A stretch of DNA of 57,604 nt from an uncultured virus (IMG/VR IMGVR_UViG_3300025466_000016). Lineage: Duplodnaviria > Heunggongvirae > Uroviricota > Caudoviricetes. Under the pieces are notes generated by a model. It had not been told where the DNA came from and ran no database searches. It saw nothing but the letters and a program-made list of their open reading frames with translations. A program made the translations under genes and the position numbers. This document shows, in pieces, positions 194-15,831 of this stretch. The first letter of the stretch is position 1; each line of letters opens with the position of its first letter. The stretch lies in IMG/VR virus record IMGVR_UViG_3300025466_000016, one strand, 5' to 3'.

Positions 194-1950
194 AAACTTT
201 GACCGTTAAAAACTTTATGAGCGTGGGTAATACTACCCAGGCTGTTAACTTTGACCGTAGCGACTTGACTTTAGTCTTAGGCGAAAACTTGGACTTAGGT
301 GGTGATGACACTGGCGCACGTAACGGTACAGGCAAGACTACTATTATCAATGCTCTTAGCTTTGCACTATACGGCAATGCACTTACTAATATTAAGAAGG
401 ATAACTTAATCAACAAAACTAATAGTAAAAATATGATGGTTACTATTGATTTTGAAAAGGACGGAGAGACCTATCGCATTGAGCGTGGGCGTAAGCCTGG
501 TATTATGAAGTTCTTTGTTGGTGATAACGAAAAAGAAATCACCGATGATGCACAAGGTGACAGCAGAGAAACACAACAGGAAATTGAACGTATGCTAGGC
601 ATGAGCCACGATATGTTCAAACACGTTGTAGCACTTAACACATACACAGAGCCGTTTTTAGCACTCAAGGCAAATGATCAGCGAACTATTATTGAACAGT
701 TATTGGGAATTACCTTACTAAGCGAAAAGGCCGATAGATTAAAAGAATTAAATAAAGCCACTAAGGACGCAATTAGTCAAGAAGAATTCCGTATTAAAGC
801 TGTAGGCGATGCTAACAAGCGTATCGAAGAACAAATTGAAAGCCTTAAGCGTAGGCAAGGCATATGGATTACAAAACATGAAGAAGAGATTAGCAAACTC
901 CAAGATGCGATTGAAGAGCTACAGAAAATCGATATCGCGTCCGAGATTCAGGCACACCAAGCGTTTAAGACCTGGGACCAAACCCGAAAGGATATCAATG
1001 AGCTATCGTCGGCGATTAGTCGCACGAAATTGGACTTATCCCGTGAAGAAAAGACGATTGCTAAGATCACAGCAGAACTTGTTTCGTTGGAAAATCATAC
1101 GTGTCATACCTGCGGTCAAGAATTCCATGACGAAAAGCACCAACAGGTATTGGGATCAAAGCAGAGAGAATTGGATGGAGCAACGGAGTCAGCGAGTGCC
1201 CATGTTGCCACTTTGGCTGAACTACAGTCAGCTCACAATGGGCTGGGCAAACTAGGTCCGCGTCCCGAAACGTTTTATGATAAAGAATCTGATGCTATTC
1301 ATCATCAAGCTAGTGTTGACAATTTAATTAAACAGCTATCAGCCAAGGCAGAAGAATTAGATCCTTACGTAGAACAAATTGCTGAGATGCAAACACAAGG
1401 CTTAGAAGAAATTACATACGATGTGTTAAATGAACTATCAAATCTTAAAGACCATCAAGAATTTCTACTTAAACTATTAACAAACAAAGATTCGTTTATT
1501 CGTAAGCGTATCATCGATCAGAATTTAAGTTATTTAAATGCCCGCTTGGGACAATACCTGGATCGTATTGGATTACCACACACAGTTAAGTTTAACAACG
1601 ACTTATCTGTATCCATTACTGAGCTAGGTAGAGATTTAGACTTTGACAACCTATCACGGGGAGAACGTAACCGCTTAATCTTATCCTTAAGCTGGGCGTT
1701 CCGAGATGTTTGGGAAAGTTTATATCAGCCCATTAACTTGTTATTCATTGACGAGTTAGTAGACAGCGGTATGGATAGCTCGGGTGTTGAGAACTCCCTT
1801 GCTATCCTGAAAAAGATGAGTCGTGAAGCTAACAAATCAATTTGGTTAGTGTCACACAAGGATGAACTAGCGGGTCGTGTAAACAATACACTACACGTAG
1901 TTAAGGAAAATGGGTTTACTACCTACAACACGGACATAGATATTGTTTAA
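181..1950 (+). CDS. Rad50/SbcC-like recombination ATPase (T4 gp46-like)
   Basis: Walker A NGTGKTT, long coiled coil with CHTC zinc hook, signature LSRGE, Walker B LLFIDE, H-loop LVSH. Confidence 0.95.
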   Translation: MFKIKTLTVKNFMSVGNTTQAVNFDRSDLTLVLGENLDLGGDDTGARNGTGKTTIINALSFALYGNALTNIKKDNLINKTNSKNMMVTIDFEKDGETYRIERGRKPGIMKFFVGDNEKEITDDAQGDSRETQQEIERMLGMSHDMFKHVVALNTYTEPFLALKANDQRTIIEQLLGITLLSEKADRLKELNKATKDAISQEEFRIKAVGDANKRIEEQIESLKRRQGIWITKHEEEISKLQDAIEELQKIDIASEIQAHQAFKTWDQTRKDINELSSAISRTKLDLSREEKTIAKITAELVSLENHTCHTCGQEFHDEKHQQVLGSKQRELDGATESASAHVATLAELQSAHNGLGKLGPRPETFYDKESDAIHHQASVDNLIKQLSAKAEELDPYVEQIAEMQTQGLEEITYDVLNELSNLKDHQEFLLKLLTNKDSFIRKRIIDQNLSYLNARLGQYLDRIGLPHTVKFNNDLSVSITELGRDLDFDNLSRGERNRLILSLSWAFRDVWESLYQPINLLFIDELVDSGMDSSGVENSLAILKKMSREANKSIWLVSHKDELAGRVNNTLHVVKENGFTTYNTDIDIV

Positions 1951-2815
1951 TAGAGATATTAAAATATTGCACCTCGAGCCAACTGATGTATGTCAGGCGG
2001 CTTGTCCTCTGTGTGCCCGCGAAACAGATCCTGCGTTTGATAAGAAGATGCACAACCATTTAACAATTGAACAGATTAAAGAAAAGTTTAGCGAAGATTT
2101 TATTCGCGGACTAGATAAAATGTTTATGTGCGGTAACTACGGCGATCCAGCTGCCGGCAAATATACTTTAGAAATTTTTGAATACTTTAGAAAAATTAAT
2201 CCCAATATTACATTAGGTATGAACACCAATGGCGGATTGCAAAACATGACGTGGTGGGTTAAGTTAGCACGACTATTGCGTAAACCCAACGACTTTGTTG
2301 TGTTTAGTATCGACGGTTTAGAAGATACTAACCACATATATCGACGTAATGTAAATTGGGAAGTGCTAGAAGCTAATGTAGCTTCATTTATTGCTGCAGG
2401 CGGTCCTGCACATTGGGACATGCTGGTATATCGACACAACCAACATCAAGTTGATGATTGTGAAGCACTAGCACGTAAGATGAAATTTAAATGGTTTCGA
2501 GCTAAAGTTAGCAAACGTAATTACATTAACGGTCTCGAAGAACCCATCGGATGGTTGCGCCCTACTTATACTCCAGGTCGAATTGATTGTCGTGCCTTAA
2601 GCGAAGCTAGCATTTATATGGATGCACAAGGTCGCATTAGTCCTTGTTGCTGGTTAGGTGCTAGACAAAGCGATTTTATAACCGACATCAACGAAGTGGC
2701 TGTTAACTGGGACAACGTAGACCTAGTAGAGCCCACCTGTGTTGTAACCTGCACAACAAAAGATAATATAACAGTATTTGATAGCCAATGGCAACGCGAG
2801 GTTGAACTATGTTAG
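1943..2815 (+). CDS. Radical SAM enzyme with C-terminal Cys-rich (SPASM/twitch-like) region
   Basis: CQAACPLC (CxxxCxxC), CGNYGDP, NTNGG, FSIDG; C-terminal C...GRISPCC...CxxxC. The TTG start is uncertain. Confidence 0.9.
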   Translation: MFNRDIKILHLEPTDVCQAACPLCARETDPAFDKKMHNHLTIEQIKEKFSEDFIRGLDKMFMCGNYGDPAAGKYTLEIFEYFRKINPNITLGMNTNGGLQNMTWWVKLARLLRKPNDFVVFSIDGLEDTNHIYRRNVNWEVLEANVASFIAAGGPAHWDMLVYRHNQHQVDDCEALARKMKFKWFRAKVSKRNYINGLEEPIGWLRPTYTPGRIDCRALSEASIYMDAQGRISPCCWLGARQSDFITDINEVAVNWDNVDLVEPTCVVTCTTKDNITVFDSQWQREVELC

Positions 2816-3831
2816 CTACCTGGCATTTTCATATCGAAATAAGTTCTAAGTGTACACTACGCTGTACTCGCTGTGCGCGACAAGAAGTTCCGGATTCGTT
2901 AGTTAACACCGAATTAGATTTAGAATTTTTTCAACGTAACTTTACACCAGAGTTTGTTCTAGCCAATGTAGAAAAGATTACATTCTGCGGCGACGACGGA
3001 GATCCAATTTACGCACATGATTTAATTTCAGTTGTACGTTATATCAAAACAATCAAACCCGTTGAGATTGTTATTATTACCAATGGTAGCCACAAGAAAG
3101 CTGAATGGTGGGCTGAATTGGGATCTGTACTAGATGCCGGAGATACTGTACACTTTAGCGTAGACGGATACGACAACGCCAGTAACAATTTATACAGAGT
3201 AAACAGCGATTTCGTGTCAATTATACAAGGTATTGAGACGCTAAGAGCCACGAGTAAATGTCGATTAGTATGGGCTGCTATTGCGTTTAAATTTAACGAA
3301 GAGCATATAGATTACATGCAATCGCTGGCCGATAAACTAGGCATGGATGCTTTTCAATTAACTTTAAGCACTAAGTTTGGGAAAATATATCCCAATTATG
3401 GCTTGAACGATCCACTACAACCTAGCGATCGGTATGTAAGCAGCTCGCATAGATTTGAAAGACGTGTTACAGTACTAAGCCAGCGCGGACTTAATAGCGA
3501 AGTTAAAAAGATTAATTTAGATTTGTTTAAGCAAACACGCCCACAGGGTGATGTTATTCCTAATGTAATTCCCTTGTGTGAAATAGGCAATAAAGGATTG
3601 TATATCGACGCACAAGGAAGATTATTTCCTTGCTGTTGGGTAGCTAATCGCTACACTCACAACACAGAATGGCAGGAAATAGCTGAAAACTTCAATCTAA
3701 ACACCAGAACACTAACAGATGCTGTTGCAGATAATTTCTGGATAAGGGATTTTAAACAGTTTGGCTGGCAAGAATGTCGCACAAAATGCACAAGGAACGT
3801 GGTAAATCAAGAATATGCTACAGTTTGGTAA
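2809..3831 (+). CDS. Radical SAM enzyme with C-terminal Cys-rich (SPASM/twitch-like) region
   Basis: CTLRCTRC, CGDDGDP, ITNGS, FSVDG, YIDAQGRLFPCCW, CRTKC; paralogue of the preceding gene. Confidence 0.9.
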   Translation: MLATWHFHIEISSKCTLRCTRCARQEVPDSLVNTELDLEFFQRNFTPEFVLANVEKITFCGDDGDPIYAHDLISVVRYIKTIKPVEIVIITNGSHKKAEWWAELGSVLDAGDTVHFSVDGYDNASNNLYRVNSDFVSIIQGIETLRATSKCRLVWAAIAFKFNEEHIDYMQSLADKLGMDAFQLTLSTKFGKIYPNYGLNDPLQPSDRYVSSSHRFERRVTVLSQRGLNSEVKKINLDLFKQTRPQGDVIPNVIPLCEIGNKGLYIDAQGRLFPCCWVANRYTHNTEWQEIAENFNLNTRTLTDAVADNFWIRDFKQFGWQECRTKCTRNVVNQEYATVW

Positions 3832-3852
3832 TAAAGAGATAACTATGTATGA

Positions 3853-4296
3853 ATGACATGGCTTTACGAAAACACTCTAGTAGAAACTTTACCCGAAACT
3901 TGTGTTGGATTTGTTTATTTGATTACAAATAAAATATCCGGCAGGAAGTATATTGGTAAAAAATTAGCAAAATTTAGTAAAACCACTTATCGTATGGTCA
4001 AATTGAAAAACGGTAAGAAGAAACGTAAAAAAATTAAAGGCAAAATTGATTCAGATTGGATGACCTACTATGGCTCTAGTCCAGAATTAACTAAAGATGT
4101 AGTAGCACTAGGAGTGGATAATTTTACAAGAGAGATATTGTATTATTGTTCTAGTAAATCTGAATGTAGCTACATCGAAGCAAGAGAACAATTTAGACAC
4201 AAAGTCTTAGAATCTGACGATTATTATAACGGACACATCCAAGTCCGTGTCCATGGCTCCCACATTAAGAACAAATTGACACCAAGTCACAGTTAA
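3853..4296 (+). CDS. Stand-alone GIY-YIG-fold protein
   Basis: GFVYLITN...KYIGKK motif, later E (YIEARE) and YYN; Lys/Arg-rich insert KLKNGKKKRKKIKGK. Confidence 0.75.
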   Translation: MTWLYENTLVETLPETCVGFVYLITNKISGRKYIGKKLAKFSKTTYRMVKLKNGKKKRKKIKGKIDSDWMTYYGSSPELTKDVVALGVDNFTREILYYCSSKSECSYIEAREQFRHKVLESDDYYNGHIQVRVHGSHIKNKLTPSHS

Positions 4297-4299
4297 TAG

Positions 4300-4745
4300 A
4301 CTAGCACAGGTCAACATCGTGTGCCTATGACAACTGGATCGCGGATCACAGGGACGGAAGACTCTTCGCTGTAAAGAGCACTCAATCAGTATCCTTAACA
4401 GGACCATGATCGGATATGCCTATAACCGGTTTGATTGTTTGAAAAGATTTAGGAAAAGGCTAAAAGACGTAGAAGCGATTCTACACGTTTGTTATATGTG
4501 TTAGCGTATGTATAACAAGCCGCCGTTGTATAAAGACAGAACGAGCAGGTACCGGACAACCGCCTGTGCATACGAAAGTATATAGTTTTAACGCTAAGTG
4601 ATTGTGCTACTCGGATGATGCTACAATTCTTACTTTGCCCGTTGTCTGGGCAAAGTGTGACTGATTAATCTGGATGATACTGAAAAACATCAATAATAAA
4701 AAAATGTTGTGAGCAAAGCGAAACAACAGATCTCGTTAGAGATCT
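4300..4745 (+). ncRNA. Candidate large structured non-coding RNA (unassigned family)
   Basis: About 450 nt with no credible ORF and ten or more stems, GNRA loops (GCGA 4475-4478, GAAA 4574-4577), G-U pairs favouring the + strand, and loop TTAGCGT (4501-4507) complementary to ACGCTAA (4591-4597). Confidence 0.65.
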
Positions 4746-4963
4746 TAAAAGAATGGAAGTCCTGAATCCTTGGTTGTATCTAAATTCTCTTTGATGATCT
4801 TGCTGACTATTTCGCGTTCTTGTTGTCCTAACATCAAAGCATCTTCATAGCTAAGTCCACCCCTCATGAACCAGGCAAATTTTAGAGCTTCGTGTTTAAT
4901 GGCTTTTGTTTCGTTATCGAGTTTTGTAAGATACTCGATAACTTGCTCTCTATCTAATTGCAA
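4745..4963 (-). CDS. Tail/baseplate assembly protein (gp51-like or GT-like C-terminal module), probably made by -1 frameshift from the upstream gene
   Basis: No ATG or Shine-Dalgarno; in the -1 frame of the upstream ORF at T TTT TTC (4981-4975); WFMRGGLSYEDALML...EREIV motif. Confidence 0.6.
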   Translation of the reverse strand: MQLDREQVIEYLTKLDNETKAIKHEALKFAWFMRGGLSYEDALMLGQQEREIVSKIIKENLDTTKDSGLPFF

Positions 4964-4968
4964 AAGCC

Positions 4969-5808
4969 TTATGCGAAAAAATTGGCGTAGTCGAATGTTA
5001 ACGGTACATCGTACTCGTTAGCACATGATGTACATGTTGCATGTATTGGTTTAATTGCTGCACTTGAGTTAATATCTGCTAAACGTTTTTGAATTGTGCG
5101 TAAGACTTTATAATCAGCCATATTATAAAATTCTTTAATAAAGTCGGAGTCAGTAACAACGGTACCATCTTCGGTTACAATACTTTGTGTGCTATTAACA
5201 CTAATTTCTACATTAAGATCAATTAACTTGTTTAGATAAGAGTCGCTCTTGACTTTCTTTTCTTCATCAGTAATTGTGCTGTCGGCAATAGTACGCATTA
5301 ACTGTTGTTCTGTAAACTCAATTTGACTTACACGATTAACTTCAAAGTAAGGTTGCGGTCTAAGAGTAATTTTTAAATTATCAATTTCCAATGGGGTAGA
5401 ATAGTCGGGGCAAATGATAGATCCGGTAATGCCGCTAAGATCTAGTTGGAAGTTATTTTCTTCTTCGCATTTTGGGCAATTACTGTCGAATTCCATATTG
5501 TTACCGTAGCTGGCAATGCGAATGTTTAGTAACACATAGTCTACATCAACGCTAGGCATTTTCCAAGCATCTTTAATGTTTGGCATACAACTTTCAATAA
5601 CGTCAACAACGCCCTGTCCGTTGAGTAATGCATCTGGTGTGCGAATAGTAATTTCGTCACGTGCAGTCATTGGGTATACTGGAATCTCCCCGCTAACTGG
5701 CAATTCTAATGCGCCTTCGGCCCAAAAACGCCCATTACTAGGCAATTTAATGTAAATTGCTGGCTGTCTAAAGTGTTTGGATAGAGGATTTGTTGATTTT
5801 TGTTCCAT
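4969..5808 (-). CDS. Baseplate hub assembly / tail assembly chaperone (T4 gp26-like)
   Basis: IKLPS...VYPMTARDE...DVDYVLLNIRIASYG...CPKC, C-terminal CTSC and ..NFF ending. Start reassigned to the ATG at 5808 (MEQKSTNPL). Confidence 0.7.
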   Translation of the reverse strand: MEQKSTNPLSKHFRQPAIYIKLPSNGRFWAEGALELPVSGEIPVYPMTARDEITIRTPDALLNGQGVVDVIESCMPNIKDAWKMPSVDVDYVLLNIRIASYGNNMEFDSNCPKCEEENNFQLDLSGITGSIICPDYSTPLEIDNLKITLRPQPYFEVNRVSQIEFTEQQLMRTIADSTITDEEKKVKSDSYLNKLIDLNVEISVNSTQSIVTEDGTVVTDSDFIKEFYNMADYKVLRTIQKRLADINSSAAIKPIHATCTSCANEYDVPLTFDYANFFA

Positions 5809-5820
5809 TTTTAATTCCCA

Positions 5821-5847
5821 TAAATAATTGATATACAAGTATATTTA
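5821..5847. promoter_or_regulatory. Pair of oppositely oriented TAAATA late-promoter boxes
   Basis: TAAATA on + at 5821-5826 (towards the tape measure gene) and on - at 5847-5842 (towards the gp26-like gene). Confidence 0.6.
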
Positions 5848-11489: not shown

Positions 11490-12122
11490 ATGGCTTTGTA
11501 CCTAAAAGAGAACTTAACATTTGATCGGGCAGGTCTGATTGTAGAATCTGTCGACGAGAATGGTAAGACCTCTCTAAAAATGGAAGGGATATTCATCGAA
11601 GGAGGCGTAAGAAACGCTAACGAACGTGTATATCCCGTTCATGAAATTGAAAAGGCTGTTAACAACATTAACAAACAAATCAATGAAGGTTACTCTGTTC
11701 TGGGCGAAGTAGATCATCCAGATGACCTAAAAATCAATTTAGATCGTGTTAGCCACATGATCGAGAAAATGTGGATGGACGGTCCAACAGGACGCGGAAA
11801 ATTAAAAGTATTACCAACACCAATGGGACAACTAGTCGAAGCCATGATTACATCTGGCGTAAAATTAGGAGTATCATCACGTGGATCTGGTAATGTTAAC
11901 GAAGGTAGTGGACACGTTAGCGATTTTGAAATCGTTACCGTAGACATTGTAGCACAACCTAGTGCTCCTCATGCATACCCTAAAGCAATCTATGAAGGCT
12001 TGATGAATATGCGTGGCGGTCAACAGGTATTTGAAATGGCACGTGAAGCCAGTCAAAATCAAAAAGTACAGAAGTACCTGAAAGAAGCCGTTAAGGGCTT
12101 CATCAAAGATTTAAAACTATAG
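11490..12122 (+). CDS. Prohead protease (T4 gp21-like)
   Basis: NANERVYP, GEVDHP, VSH, TPMG, GVSSRGSG, DIVAQPSAP. Confidence 0.95.
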   Translation: MALYLKENLTFDRAGLIVESVDENGKTSLKMEGIFIEGGVRNANERVYPVHEIEKAVNNINKQINEGYSVLGEVDHPDDLKINLDRVSHMIEKMWMDGPTGRGKLKVLPTPMGQLVEAMITSGVKLGVSSRGSGNVNEGSGHVSDFEIVTVDIVAQPSAPHAYPKAIYEGLMNMRGGQQVFEMAREASQNQKVQKYLKEAVKGFIKDLKL

Positions 12123-13278: not shown

Positions 13279-14472
13279 ATGACACAAGCATTATTAGAAA
13301 GCCGTTGGGGCGAAACCAAAGAAGCCCTGTTAGAAGGACTTAACGGTTCACGTCGTACAACAATGGGTGTAATCCTTGAGAACACTCGCAAGATGTTGGC
13401 TGAAAGCGCAACAGCTGGTTCTACACAAGCAGGTAACGTAGCTACACTAAACCGTGTAATTCTACCAGTTATCCGTCGTGTAATGCCAACAGTTATCGCT
13501 AACGAAATCGTTGGTGTTCAGCCAATGACTGGTCCAGTTGCTCAAATCCACACATTACGTGTTCGCTATGCTGACAACGTAACAGATTCTAGCGCCTACG
13601 CTACATCTGCAGCTGCTGGTGACGAGGCATTGAGCCCATTCAAGATCGCTGTAGCTTACTCTTCAGTAGCTCCAGGCGGTACAGCTACAACAGGTCAAGC
13701 TACTTCTACAAGTACACTTGAAGGTGTTGCTGGTAGCCGTATCAACGTTCAAATCTTGAAACAAGTAGTAGAAGCTAAAACACGTAAGTTATCAGCTCGT
13801 TGGACATTTGAAGCTGCGCAAGATGCACAATCTATGCACGGTTTGGATGTTGAAGCTGAAATCATGGCTGCTTTAGCACAAGAAATCACAGTTGAAATTG
13901 ACCAAGAGATCCTAGGTTCTTTACGTGCCTTGGCTGCAACTGATTACACATTTGATCAGTCTGCTGTATCTGGTACAGCTACATTCGTTGGTGACGAACA
14001 CGCTGCTTTAGCTGTTCTAATCAATCGTACAGCTAACTTGATCGCTCAACGTACACGTCGTGGTGCTGGTAACTGGGCTGTTGTTTCCCCAGCTGCTTTA
14101 ACAGTACTACAAAGTGCTACAACTTCTGCATTCGCTCGTACAACAGAAGGTACATTTGAAGCTCCTACAAACACTAAGTTTGTTGGTACATTGAACGGCG
14201 CAATGAAGATTTATGTTGACGGTTATGCAAACGACAGCCAAGCTGTTTTAGTTGGTTATAAGGGTTCTAGCGAAGCTGATGCAGCTGCGTTCTATTGCCC
14301 ATATATCCCATTGATGAGCTCTGGTGTTGTTCTAGATCCATCTACATTTGAACCAGTAGTAAGTTTTATGACACGTTATGGATATGTTGAGTTAACAAAC
14401 ACAGCATCATCTCTAGGTAACGCTGGTGACTATGTTGGTGAAATCGCTGTAGCTAACTTATCTTTCCAATAA
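13279..14472 (+). CDS. Major capsid protein (T4 gp23-like)
   Basis: VGVQPMTGP, AKTRKLSARWTFEAAQD, EIDQEI, FYCPYIPL, FMTRYG; TAAATA at 13258-13263. Confidence 0.97.
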   Translation: MTQALLESRWGETKEALLEGLNGSRRTTMGVILENTRKMLAESATAGSTQAGNVATLNRVILPVIRRVMPTVIANEIVGVQPMTGPVAQIHTLRVRYADNVTDSSAYATSAAAGDEALSPFKIAVAYSSVAPGGTATTGQATSTSTLEGVAGSRINVQILKQVVEAKTRKLSARWTFEAAQDAQSMHGLDVEAEIMAALAQEITVEIDQEILGSLRALAATDYTFDQSAVSGTATFVGDEHAALAVLINRTANLIAQRTRRGAGNWAVVSPAALTVLQSATTSAFARTTEGTFEAPTNTKFVGTLNGAMKIYVDGYANDSQAVLVGYKGSSEADAAAFYCPYIPLMSSGVVLDPSTFEPVVSFMTRYGYVELTNTASSLGNAGDYVGEIAVANLSFQ

Positions 14473-14526
14473 TCAAGACTGAACTTGATTTAACGAAAGT
14501 TAAAACTCCCAGGGATGGGAAGGCAG

Positions 14527-14550
14527 AAAAGCACCGAAAGGTGCTTTTTT
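14527..14550 (+). terminator. Intrinsic terminator after the major capsid gene
   Basis: AAAAGCACC-GAAA-GGTGCTTTTTT. Confidence 0.9.
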
Positions 14551-14596
14551 GTTGGCTGAACATAAATATTATTAACATTCTTAAAGGATTAAAGCA

Positions 14597-14812
14597 ATGG
14601 CATACGCAATTTATAAACAAGGCGCACAAGTAGCAATTGGCACAAAAACTGCTGGCAGTTTAAATACAAATTCAGTAGTATCTGCTGTTGGTAGTTATTC
14701 GGCATTACCAGTTTCTGCTGTAGTTGGAACAGCAACAGGAAAAGGTACTATTTACAAAGCAGGTACACAAGCTGTAGTTGGTACATCGGTTGGTATCCAT
14801 ACCATTCGCTAA
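14597..14812 (+). CDS. Small late protein with internal duplication
   Basis: TAAATA at 14563-14568, SD AAGGA; IYKQGAQVAIGT / IYKAGTQAVVGT repeat. Confidence 0.7.
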   Translation: MAYAIYKQGAQVAIGTKTAGSLNTNSVVSAVGSYSALPVSAVVGTATGKGTIYKAGTQAVVGTSVGIHTIR

Positions 14813-14825
14813 TTAAAGGTATAAT

Positions 14826-15011
14826 ATGACAACTAAAGCGCCGCCGCCAGTGGTAGCAACAAAGCCTAAAACAGTTATTCCGGCACCCGTTCCTGCTGCA
14901 CCATCTGTTCGTAATGCTATTCCTTCAGCTAAAACAACACAACCTGTACAAACAGCACCGAAGCCAAAGATTGTAACTACCAATCCGGTAGTTGGTAAAG
15001 CAGTTCATTAA
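14826..15011 (+). CDS. Small Pro/Thr/Lys-rich protein
   Basis: SD AAGGT before the ATG; followed by a terminator. Confidence 0.6.
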   Translation: MTTKAPPPVVATKPKTVIPAPVPAAPSVRNAIPSAKTTQPVQTAPKPKIVTTNPVVGKAVH

Positions 15012-15030
15012 TTGTTAAATTAAGCAAATA

Positions 15031-15052
15031 AAGGACCTTCGGGTCCTTTTTT
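15031..15052 (+). terminator. Intrinsic terminator
   Basis: AAGGACC-TTCG-GGTCCTTTTTT. Confidence 0.9.
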
Positions 15053-15065
15053 GTTGACTGTACCA

Positions 15066-15147
15066 TAAATATGTATGTTCACTTGCAAGAGTAACTTTCG
15101 GAGCACCACTCCGGATAGCCTAGAACGCTATATTAAGGAGAAATAAA
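15066..15147 (+). promoter_or_regulatory. Late promoter plus three-hairpin 5' leader
   Basis: TAAATA at 15066-15071; stems at 15077-15095 (GCAA loop), 15097-15115 and 15116-15130; SD AAGGAG at 15135-15140. Confidence 0.6.
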
Positions 15148-15831
15148 ATGGCAAACAAACTAAAAATCACAAAAACAAGTAATGGTACAACAGTTGACAA
15201 ATATGTTAGCCCAACTATCGTTGATGGCGCACACTTTGGTGGCACAGGCGGTTTAACAAGTCAAGCTGGTTATCAAATTCAACCACAAGTTTATGTTACT
15301 GGTGGCAGCTCATTGCCTGGTTCAATCCTAGCACAAAAAGGCGCACACAAGTTTCAAGTAACCGATGGTACTTTAACTGGTAAATGTACATTAACTAACA
15401 GTCCTAATCTGACTGCTGGTCAAATGAATATTTTAATCAATCTAAGTACATTAACTACAGCAAACGTATCGGCCGCCAACGTAGCTGGTGGTGCAACATC
15501 TGCTTATGTAACATATACAACATCAACAGTAGTCGGTCCAGTTTCTGCTCCACGTGTAGGCGACTACATTATTGGCTTTACTGGTAATGCTAGTGTTGTT
15601 CAAGTCACTGCAATCAACGCAACTGCCGCTGGTGTAGGCAACGTAACTGTTGCTGTAGCCGGTAACGTGGGCGCACAAAACTCTGTAACTGTAACTGATA
15701 GTACATACGCTAGCCGTATTACTAACAAGTTTGTATACGATTTTGGTAACGATGGTTCTGGATACCCTAACAAGTTCCGTTATCGTTTATCTACACCGGA
15801 TGCAATATTTGTTCAAGTACAAAATGCTTAA
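15148..15831 (+). CDS. Probable virion structural protein (beta-rich)
   Basis: Own late promoter, strong SD and terminator; Thr/Gly/Val-rich. Confidence 0.65.
   Translation: MANKLKITKTSNGTTVDKYVSPTIVDGAHFGGTGGLTSQAGYQIQPQVYVTGGSSLPGSILAQKGAHKFQVTDGTLTGKCTLTNSPNLTAGQMNILINLSTLTTANVSAANVAGGATSAYVTYTTSTVVGPVSAPRVGDYIIGFTGNASVVQVTAINATAAGVGNVTVAVAGNVGAQNSVTVTDSTYASRITNKFVYDFGNDGSGYPNKFRYRLSTPDAIFVQVQNA

Follow-up and report, generated by a model that had tools for sequence, protein, structure and literature searches.

What does a phage keep in the gap behind a small nuclease gene when that gap is filled with potential stems, and does the product belong with the nuclease? The question is raised by a 57,604-nucleotide (nt) stretch of DNA, here called the window, from an uncultured virus of the Caudoviricetes (IMG/VR record IMGVR_UViG_3300025466_000016), whose gene content identifies it as T4-like phage DNA. 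An earlier note, made from the letters of this DNA, had described a gene for a minimal GIY-YIG nuclease followed by a pseudoknotted RNA, and had suggested that the two may form an undescribed ribonucleoprotein, for example an RNA-guided nuclease, or that the RNA may be a ribozyme or structural RNA. We find that positions 4297 to about 4690 on the + strand encode a genuine structured non-coding RNA, and that this RNA belongs to a modular family of aquatic T4-like phages in which the 5' domain is exchangeable and a 3' core of ~150-250 nt is common to all. The gene and the RNA lie as follows.

3853-4296, + strand: SegE-type GIY-YIG nuclease gene, 147 amino acids, stop codon at 4294-4296
4297-4690, + strand: whole structured RNA (class 1), 3' limit approximate

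A conserved structured RNA behind the nuclease gene

Homologues were gathered in two independent ways, through the nuclease protein (the protein-first set, 80 loci kept from an estimated ~4100 IMG/VR stretches with the nuclease) and through the most conserved 18-mer of the RNA (the RNA-first set, 120 loci kept from an estimated ~1100 IMG/VR stretches with this core 18-mer). In the protein-first set, 70 of 80 loci match an nhmmer profile of positions 4297-4700; in the RNA-first set, 118 of 120 do. Out of 137 full-length copies, 109 distinct homologues were aligned (alignment A2), and a structure written by hand (91 pairs, 19 helices) was counted on this alignment, to which the pairing and covariation figures for individual helices also refer. 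Paired cells amount to 89.6% over the 91 pairs, against 36-45% when the partners are slid by 1-3 columns, and compensatory change on both sides is seen at 73 of the 91 pairs. The covariation score of 0.395, compared with 0.05-0.07 for slid partners, was reached by none of 500 shuffles.

The paired columns hold 886 G.U cells against 202 A.C cells, an excess that places the RNA on the + strand, as the earlier note had judged. That note had also proposed looking for conservation and covariation downstream of nuclease homologues, and across the 109 homologues both are present. The RNA is ~390 nt long and its structure begins 3 nt past the nuclease stop codon, in keeping with the close spacing that had been noticed before. 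By thermodynamics alone the region is not separable from chance (single-sequence folding z-scores: + strand -1.94, - strand -2.91); the comparative evidence is decisive. A coding reading was ruled out, no frame being kept across homologues and the insertions and deletions not being multiples of three. No cultured phage was matched by the region in a blastn search, and among 120 pattern matches in bacterial genomes four are the true RNA, two of them (L277 and L281) on contigs that are shorter than 2 kb and come from metagenome-assembled genomes, while the rest are chance occurrences in GC-rich DNA.

Helices and pseudoknots

All the stems that the earlier note had picked out by eye are present in the sequence where it had placed them. 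One of them, ATAC-GAAA-GTAT at 4570-4581, is a lineage-specific insert that is missing from most homologues. Paired cells reach 97.8% for GCACA/TGTGC, 89% for CTCTT/AAGAG, 95% for CAATCA/TGATTG, 99.6% for GATCGG/CCGGTT, 89% for GTAGAA/TTCTAC, 83% for the long stem at 4487-4520 and 99.3% for GCAGG/CCTGT. Three helices, 4299-4301 with 4310-4312, 4525-4529 with 4556-4560 and 4538-4542 with 4585-4589, were added to these by mutual information. The elements that organise the fold outside the 5' helices P1-P6, together with the pseudoknot inside the P1 loop, are listed here.

4299-4312, + strand: small 5' pseudoknot, 4299-4301 with 4310-4312 inside the P1 loop, 91% paired
4469-4484, + strand: hairpin P7 with a GCGA loop, compensatory change at 5 of 5 counted pairs
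4487-4520, + strand: long hairpin P8, whose loop 4501-4507 forms pseudoknot PK1, compensatory change at 12 of 12 pairs
4525-4567, + strand: conserved core, in which P9 (4525-4529 with 4556-4560) crosses P11 (4545-4549 with 4563-4567)
4538-4589, + strand: P10 (4538-4542 with 4585-4589), enclosing P11 and a variable insert site, 92.5% paired
4591-4597, + strand: 3' strand of PK1, pairing with 4501-4507, compensatory change at 7 of 7 pairs, 96.5% paired
4632-4656, + strand: terminal 9-bp hairpin, 86% paired, 4 pairs compensatory

The RNA contains three pseudoknots with covariation support. PK1 is the long-range pairing that the earlier note had deduced from the complementarity of a single loop and strand, and the compensatory changes at every one of its pairs bear that deduction out. 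Within the small 5' pseudoknot, pair 4300/4311 is GC in 81 sequences and AT in 27. P9 is 99.3% paired, with pair 4527/4558 being UA in 73 sequences and CG in 36, and the conserved core that it shares with P11 holds the invariant stretch GGTACCGGACAACCGCC. The highest mutual information of all falls on three pairs of P10 (4539/4588, 4540/4587 and 4541/4586). The insert site within P10 carries from 0 to about 70 extra nt in homologues, the hairpin at 4570-4581 being the window's own insert. At ~390 nt and with three covarying pseudoknots, the RNA is of a size suited to structure determination.

An exchangeable 5' domain on a shared 3' core

A cmscan search identified the 5' third of the RNA as a motif that is already catalogued.

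4299-4440, + strand: 5' domain, Rfam RF01718 (Polynucleobacter-1), helices P1-P6

The match scores 109 bits against a cut-off of 37 (E-value 9.3e-23) and spans model positions 1-141 of 141. The rest of the window, including the 3' 250 nt of the RNA, has no other Rfam match at gathering thresholds, and in 3700-5000 the only further hit at E-values up to 10 is a chance snoRNA, at 18 bits against a cut-off of 70. The Rfam models for GOLLD, ROOL, HEARO, the group I intron and the hammerhead have no match in the window. A strong match to a known Rfam family was among the outcomes that the earlier note had named as refuting its proposal; with the RF01718 match, novelty is gone for only 142 of the about 390 nt: the earlier description of the RNA as undescribed fails for 4299-4440 but stands for the 3' 250 nt. 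A limited literature search found no account of the RNA at full length, of the pseudoknots in its core, of the exchange of its 5' domain, of its association with two nuclease families or of the identity-covarying segments described below; as a whole, the RNA is mostly undescribed.

Weinberg et al. (2010; PMC2864571) give Polynucleobacter-1 16 representatives and mark it as probably cis-regulatory. The likeness to the element studied here is close, since the full model is matched and the model helices covary in our alignment. The setting differs in that the domain lies here behind a stop codon and ahead of a convergent gene, so that it does not occupy a 5' untranslated region (UTR). It is moreover just the 5' third of a longer RNA, and a replaceable one, being missing from the class-2 RNAs and from most of the RNAs linked to a PD-(D/E)XK nuclease that are described below. 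Polynucleobacter-1 is thereby recast as one exchangeable domain of a much larger, very common phage RNA.

Evidence for the exchange comes from the protein-first set, in about half of which the profile match is confined to the 3' part. At 20 such loci, comprising class-2 RNAs or RNAs with inserts, there is no Rfam match yet the core is present. In class 2 another, equally conserved 5' domain of about 230 nt is joined to the same core, and an analogous loop-to-strand pseudoknot of different sequence is found, which covaries as well. The shared core comprises the hairpin with the loop that engages in the long-range pseudoknot, another pseudoknot, which surrounds the invariant stretch GGUACCGG..ACCGCC, and the terminal hairpin between two matched segments. 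A covariance model of this core (R1; window positions 4519-4683, 146 model positions) was built from 66 class-1 and class-2 sequences. Two protein-first loci with enough flanking DNA gave no match to it. At four further loci (L031, L035, L038 and L067) weak matches of 24-28 bits lie 300-540 nt past the GIY-YIG gene, which suggests a third, more divergent form of the RNA.

Two segments that covary by identity

On either side of the terminal hairpin the RNA carries two 14-nt stretches that match each other.

4608-4621, + strand: motif A with core heptamer 4613-4619, placed in the loop of a hairpin whose support is weak (flanking stem 43-63% paired)
4667-4680, + strand: motif B with core heptamer 4672-4678, 59 nt downstream of motif A

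Motifs A and B share the same core in every one of the distinct class-1 RNAs (109 of 109), across 9 variants of the heptamer. The identity extends to the core alignment, where it is seen in 66 of 66 rows, 15 of 15 class-2 rows among them. In 16 of 16 RNAs linked to the PD-(D/E)XK nuclease, both positions are again taken up by copies of one segment, 6-12 nt in length and quite different in sequence, although the repeat of one of them (L358), at 6 nt, is within chance expectation, being reached by 86 of 300 shuffles. Four positions covary by identity at 100% and are nearly independent of every other column; for position 4613 the mutual information with its twin is 0.98, compared with at best 0.13-0.21 with any other column. 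Covariation by identity rather than complementarity, in all 109, 66 and 16 sequences, is unusual. It is not explicable by ordinary RNA structure and points to a partner that reads both copies; the simplest idea is that one and the same partner does so.

The earlier note had recommended a search for a variable, guide-like segment. The heptamers with their 9 variants are a variable segment, but no complementary target was found for them in the flanks or contigs. Neither a reverse complement nor a third copy of the heptamer occurs at a consistent place in the flanks. Two isolated matches were set aside as chance: motif B finds an 11-nt complement within the head-protease gene (at 11713) that is missing from the homologous genes of contigs G002-G005, and a third forward copy in G011 and G013 sits inside a coding region.

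To our knowledge, the only precedent for covariation by identity is the translational bypass in T4 gene 60. There, two sequences that have to match, ~50-60 nt apart, flank a hairpin in a T4-like phage, an arrangement much like the present one; here, however, no reading frame runs through the region, and the matched part is 6-12 nt as against one codon. A bypass was ruled out as the explanation of the heptamers, because no frame is kept and variants such as AGATCAA lose the apparent stop codon. The tandem array of a type III toxin-antitoxin RNA (ToxI) is likewise not seen: Tandem Repeats Finder returned 0 rows in 4200-4800, and the two units are alike over 14 nt only.

The same repeats could be taken as part of a DNA-level element, either a replication origin or single-stranded DNA hairpin repeats read by the small GIY-YIG nuclease in the manner of the Ssn nucleases and their SRM motifs. 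Pairings of a small single-domain GIY-YIG nuclease with a cognate hairpin motif next to its gene have been described (PMC11893778), and the protein studied here resembles these nucleases in being a very small GIY-YIG enzyme, apparently without a DNA-binding domain, with a conserved, hairpin-containing element beside its gene; the direct repeats that flank the hairpin at 4608-4680 would suit such a role. Against this, neither strand of the window contains the published SRM pattern (0 matches) and there are no tandem repeats; the locus has one long covarying RNA instead of short repeats on both sides of the gene, and its protein matches PF19835. The excess of G.U over A.C cells and the covariation of the long-range pseudoknots speak for RNA as the acting molecule. 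Already disfavoured on these grounds, a DNA-level element is scarcely credible here.

The RNA follows nuclease genes of two unrelated folds

The linkage between gene and RNA is tight from both directions. Among the 66 RNA-first loci that have the RNA 5' end and at least 1200 nt of upstream sequence, the GIY-YIG gene lies upstream on the same strand in 65, at a median distance of 28 nt, with a gap exceeding 200 nt in 5 loci. Conversely, gene and RNA adjoin in 74 of the 76 protein-first loci that could be judged. The order at these loci is syntenic, running from gp46 through the nuclease and the RNA to a convergent gp26 module, with small genes varying on the gp26 side. The gene-RNA pair, present as a single copy in two complete 345-kb phage genomes, is not a roaming cassette and, since it occupies a single syntenic slot, its adjacency is partly inheritance.

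The one exception among the RNA-first loci is L131, on the 17.7-kb contig G006, where RF01718 is matched at 63 bits and the core is present but the GIY-YIG gene is found nowhere on the contig. In its stead a 188-amino-acid protein matching PF24608 (phage PD-(D/E)XK endonuclease, E-value 5.6e-30) is encoded, its gene ending 20 nt before the RNA. Relatives of this protein were collected at 38 loci, of which 30 have an R1 match, always on the same strand and 150-250 nt past the gene; RF01718 is matched at just the two of the loci searched whose protein is 100% identical. At 31 of the 38 loci gp46 is found upstream; none of the 38 contains the GIY-YIG gene. In a sister phage group, then, an unrelated nuclease fills the same slot while the RNA stays. 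We read the swap as the replacement of one phage endonuclease by an analogue. PHROGs labels the family of the 188-amino-acid protein as RusA-like resolvase, and its relatives in cultured phages are annotated as putative Holliday-junction resolvases.

The swap bears directly on the RNA-protein system that the earlier note had put forward, in which the RNA would bind the upstream nuclease and scaffold, target or restrain it, with the matched segments as specificity elements. Such a system would account for the close adjacency of gene and RNA in both sets of loci, for a nuclease that apparently has no DNA-binding domain of its own, for the presence of some nuclease gene ahead of the RNA even after the fold has been replaced, and for matched segments that vary fast and independently of the rest of the RNA. 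The replacement itself, however, speaks against a co-evolved complex of GIY-YIG protein and RNA, as the same RNA core would need to be bound by two unrelated folds; a looser partnership between nuclease and RNA is compatible with it. Four cultured phages with a GIY-YIG homologue (Melnitz, C48C1, Variovorax V45v66 and phiN3) have no R1 match in their whole records (E-value 0.3 or worse), and RF01718 has no match in the 5.4 kb around their homologues. An extra open reading frame (ORF) separates gene and RNA in about one locus in ten, the genes and the RNA share one inherited slot, and the matched segments have no complementary target among the sequences searched. The proposal of an RNA-guided nuclease is weakened by the 30 PD-(D/E)XK loci and the four cultured phages, and we give the RNA-protein system a minor, though real, chance of being correct.

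A second possibility is that the element acts in cis, as a 3' UTR that governs how stable the nuclease mRNA is, how its 3' end forms or how it is translated, or that insulates the convergent units from each other, with no role in trans. The position is what one would expect of it: the structure starts 3 nt past the stop, between convergent genes, terminator-like hairpins come after it, and the RNA stays with whichever nuclease holds the slot. Yet far less than this RNA offers would suffice for stability or termination: it runs to ~390 nt, holds three pseudoknots, invariant single-stranded stretches and the matched segments, and has a 5' domain that is exchangeable. The RNA is also intact at the loci where an ORF intervenes between it and the gene. 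We consider a purely cis-acting element unlikely.

The inserted ORFs right after the GIY-YIG gene encode 238-344 amino acids (L050, L055, L058, L064, L068, L071, L079 and L044). Neither those of L050, L055, L064, L071, L044 and L068 nor the neighbouring ORFs searched belong to a Pfam or PHROG family. In Melnitz, C48C1 and phiN3 the GIY-YIG homologue is followed by just 28-148 nt.

The upstream gene as a probable phage endonuclease

The 147-amino-acid product is matched by PF19835, the SegE GIY-YIG domain, over profile positions 1-123 of 123 (E-value 6e-31). The group I intron endonuclease model TIGR01453 gives a sub-cut-off match to positions 2-86 of 215 only. Because the former model is matched whole and the latter in just its first 86 positions, the protein is predicted to be a GIY-YIG catalytic domain without a DNA-binding domain, which agrees with its earlier description as a minimal GIY-YIG nuclease. 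It has a Lys-rich insert at about residues 50-64. Residues Y22, Y33, G35, R93, E94 and N126, which by analogy with I-TevI we take to be of the catalytic type, are invariant among 18 nuclease homologues of 56-87% identity. A PDB sequence search gave no real match for the nuclease. Cultured phages contain more distant homologues in 754 records, all below 60% identity. "NAD synthetase" is a common annotation of nuclease homologues in cyanophage and rhizobiophage records and in phrog_447, and the Pfam match suggests that this label is wrong.

The gene is single copy in each of two complete 345-kb phage genomes, and in the same loci the nuclease is conserved at 70-87%, compared with 55-96% for gp46 and 27-73% for gp26. 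Conservation above that of neighbouring core genes is unlike the behaviour of selfish homing endonuclease genes. This matters for a further explanation, namely that homing endonucleases of the GIY-YIG and PD-(D/E)XK types landed beside a conserved RNA gene and cut it in phages that do not carry them. The presence of two unrelated nuclease families at the same position by a highly conserved sequence would fit such a history, as would membership of the SegE family and flanks that are insertion hot spots. Nuclease-free alleles, on the other hand, number 0 among the 66 RNA-first loci (65 with GIY-YIG, 1 with PD-(D/E)XK), and the gene combines a single copy and high conservation with the apparent want of a C-terminal DNA-binding domain. 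Homing is accordingly very unlikely in our estimation. The gene is present at nearly all loci, and relatives of the PD-(D/E)XK protein that replaces its product are labelled, by annotation, as putative resolvases; most probably it encodes a structure-specific DNA endonuclease that belongs to the phage itself.

Transcription signals around the RNA

The earlier note had tentatively placed a promoter at a TAACTA box ahead of the nuclease gene, which finds no support: a sigma-70 scan of 3600-5100 gave no promoter on the + strand, and the T4 late consensus TATAAATA is not present in the same interval. One sequencing run that was searched (X1) contains only relatives that are 80-95% alike, on contigs that are probably DNA. 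Past the RNA and an A-rich spacer lie two conserved hairpins.

4705-4728, + strand: hairpin with a 14-nt loop that contains a GC-GAAA-GC-like mini-stem
4729-4745, + strand: second hairpin

The interval 4705-4745 has a fold z-score of -4.86, and its stems covary across homologues in an alignment read by eye. The hairpin at 4729-4745 was picked out as resembling a terminator on the - strand. The loop of the hairpin at 4705-4728 reads TGAGCGNAAGCGAAA in many homologues, which bears a superficial likeness to a hammerhead core; none of the ribozyme models in Rfam matches the hairpins at 4705-4745. Many homologues of the alignment also carry, about 10 nt past motif B, a short GC stem with a UUCG loop, which the window does not have and which may mark the 3' end of the RNA.

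A proposed role for the RNA

The explanation that accounts best for the whole is a modular phage non-coding RNA, derived from the 3' end of the nuclease transcript, that serves as a scaffold or decoy and not as an obligate guide; we judge it to be about evenly poised between right and wrong. With its start only 3 nt behind the nuclease stop codon and no promoter evident for it alone, the RNA would be transcribed as the tail of the small-nuclease transcription unit. This tail would then accumulate as a stable folded RNA and act in trans as a scaffold or decoy for a partner with two binding sites, to which the same short sequence would be displayed twice, once in a loop and once in the 3' tail. 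The RNA would not be an obligate guide of the GIY-YIG enzyme.

The structure of the RNA, its strand, its family, its linkage to the gene and the nuclease swap are shown by the data; that the RNA is transcribed together with the gene, is stable and works in trans, and what kind of partner it has, we infer. Several points weigh against this account. The tight adjacency of gene and RNA, which persists despite accessory insertions on both sides, fits a ribonucleoprotein or a cis-regulatory element as well. The reading of the PD-(D/E)XK protein as a putative resolvase has annotation as its basis, and the GIY-YIG identities, drawn from the best 80 hits, are biased upward. No complement or covarying partner of the heptamers was found in the RNA, the gene, the leader, the flanks or whole contigs, host genomes lying outside the search.

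A bolder version would make of gene and RNA a two-part system, in which a small nuclease of either fold works with the shared pseudoknotted RNA and the duplicated segment acts as a "specifier" that sets recognition, be it of a nucleic acid read at two sites or of self as opposed to a competitor phage. We hold this to be decidedly unlikely; if true, it would mean an RNA-specified nuclease outside the CRISPR/OMEGA lineage and the first natural RNA known with an identity-covarying pair of elements. The nuclease swap has interest of its own, either as a clean non-orthologous replacement of a phage endonuclease or as a hint of a partnership between nuclease and RNA.

Comparison with known RNA systems sets the family apart. 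HEARO, or omega RNA with IscB, is also a structured RNA beside a nuclease gene. Here, by contrast, the nuclease is of the GIY-YIG or PD-(D/E)XK and not the RuvC/HNH type, the RNA lies downstream, no guide-target pairing was found in the sequences searched, and the Rfam model has no match. GOLLD and ROOL (PMC12286853) share with the present RNA the character of a large, multi-domain, pseudoknotted phage RNA and abundance in lake metagenomes. The RNA described here is smaller (~390 nt), lacks a match to their Rfam models and is tied to one slot after a nuclease gene.

Neighbouring genes in the window

The following genes surround the locus or are referred to above.

181-1950: gp46/SbcC-like protein gene (phrog_77)
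1943-3831, + strand: two adjacent radical-SAM/SPASM-type genes, between gp46 and the nuclease gene
4745-5838, - strand: 72-amino-acid ORF and gp26-like gene (PF12322; 4969-5838), convergent with the nuclease gene and the RNA
11490-12122: head protease gene

The 72-amino-acid ORF and the gp26-like gene are kept downstream in 36-44 of 80 loci. No tRNA genes were found in the window. The earlier note had called the region behind the nuclease gene the longest gap in the window; on a partial check, the one longer stretch without ORFs of at least 90 amino acids (14472-15148) contains + strand ORFs of 61-71 amino acids. The radical-SAM genes are an accessory insert, present in 0, 1 or 2 copies across homologous loci.

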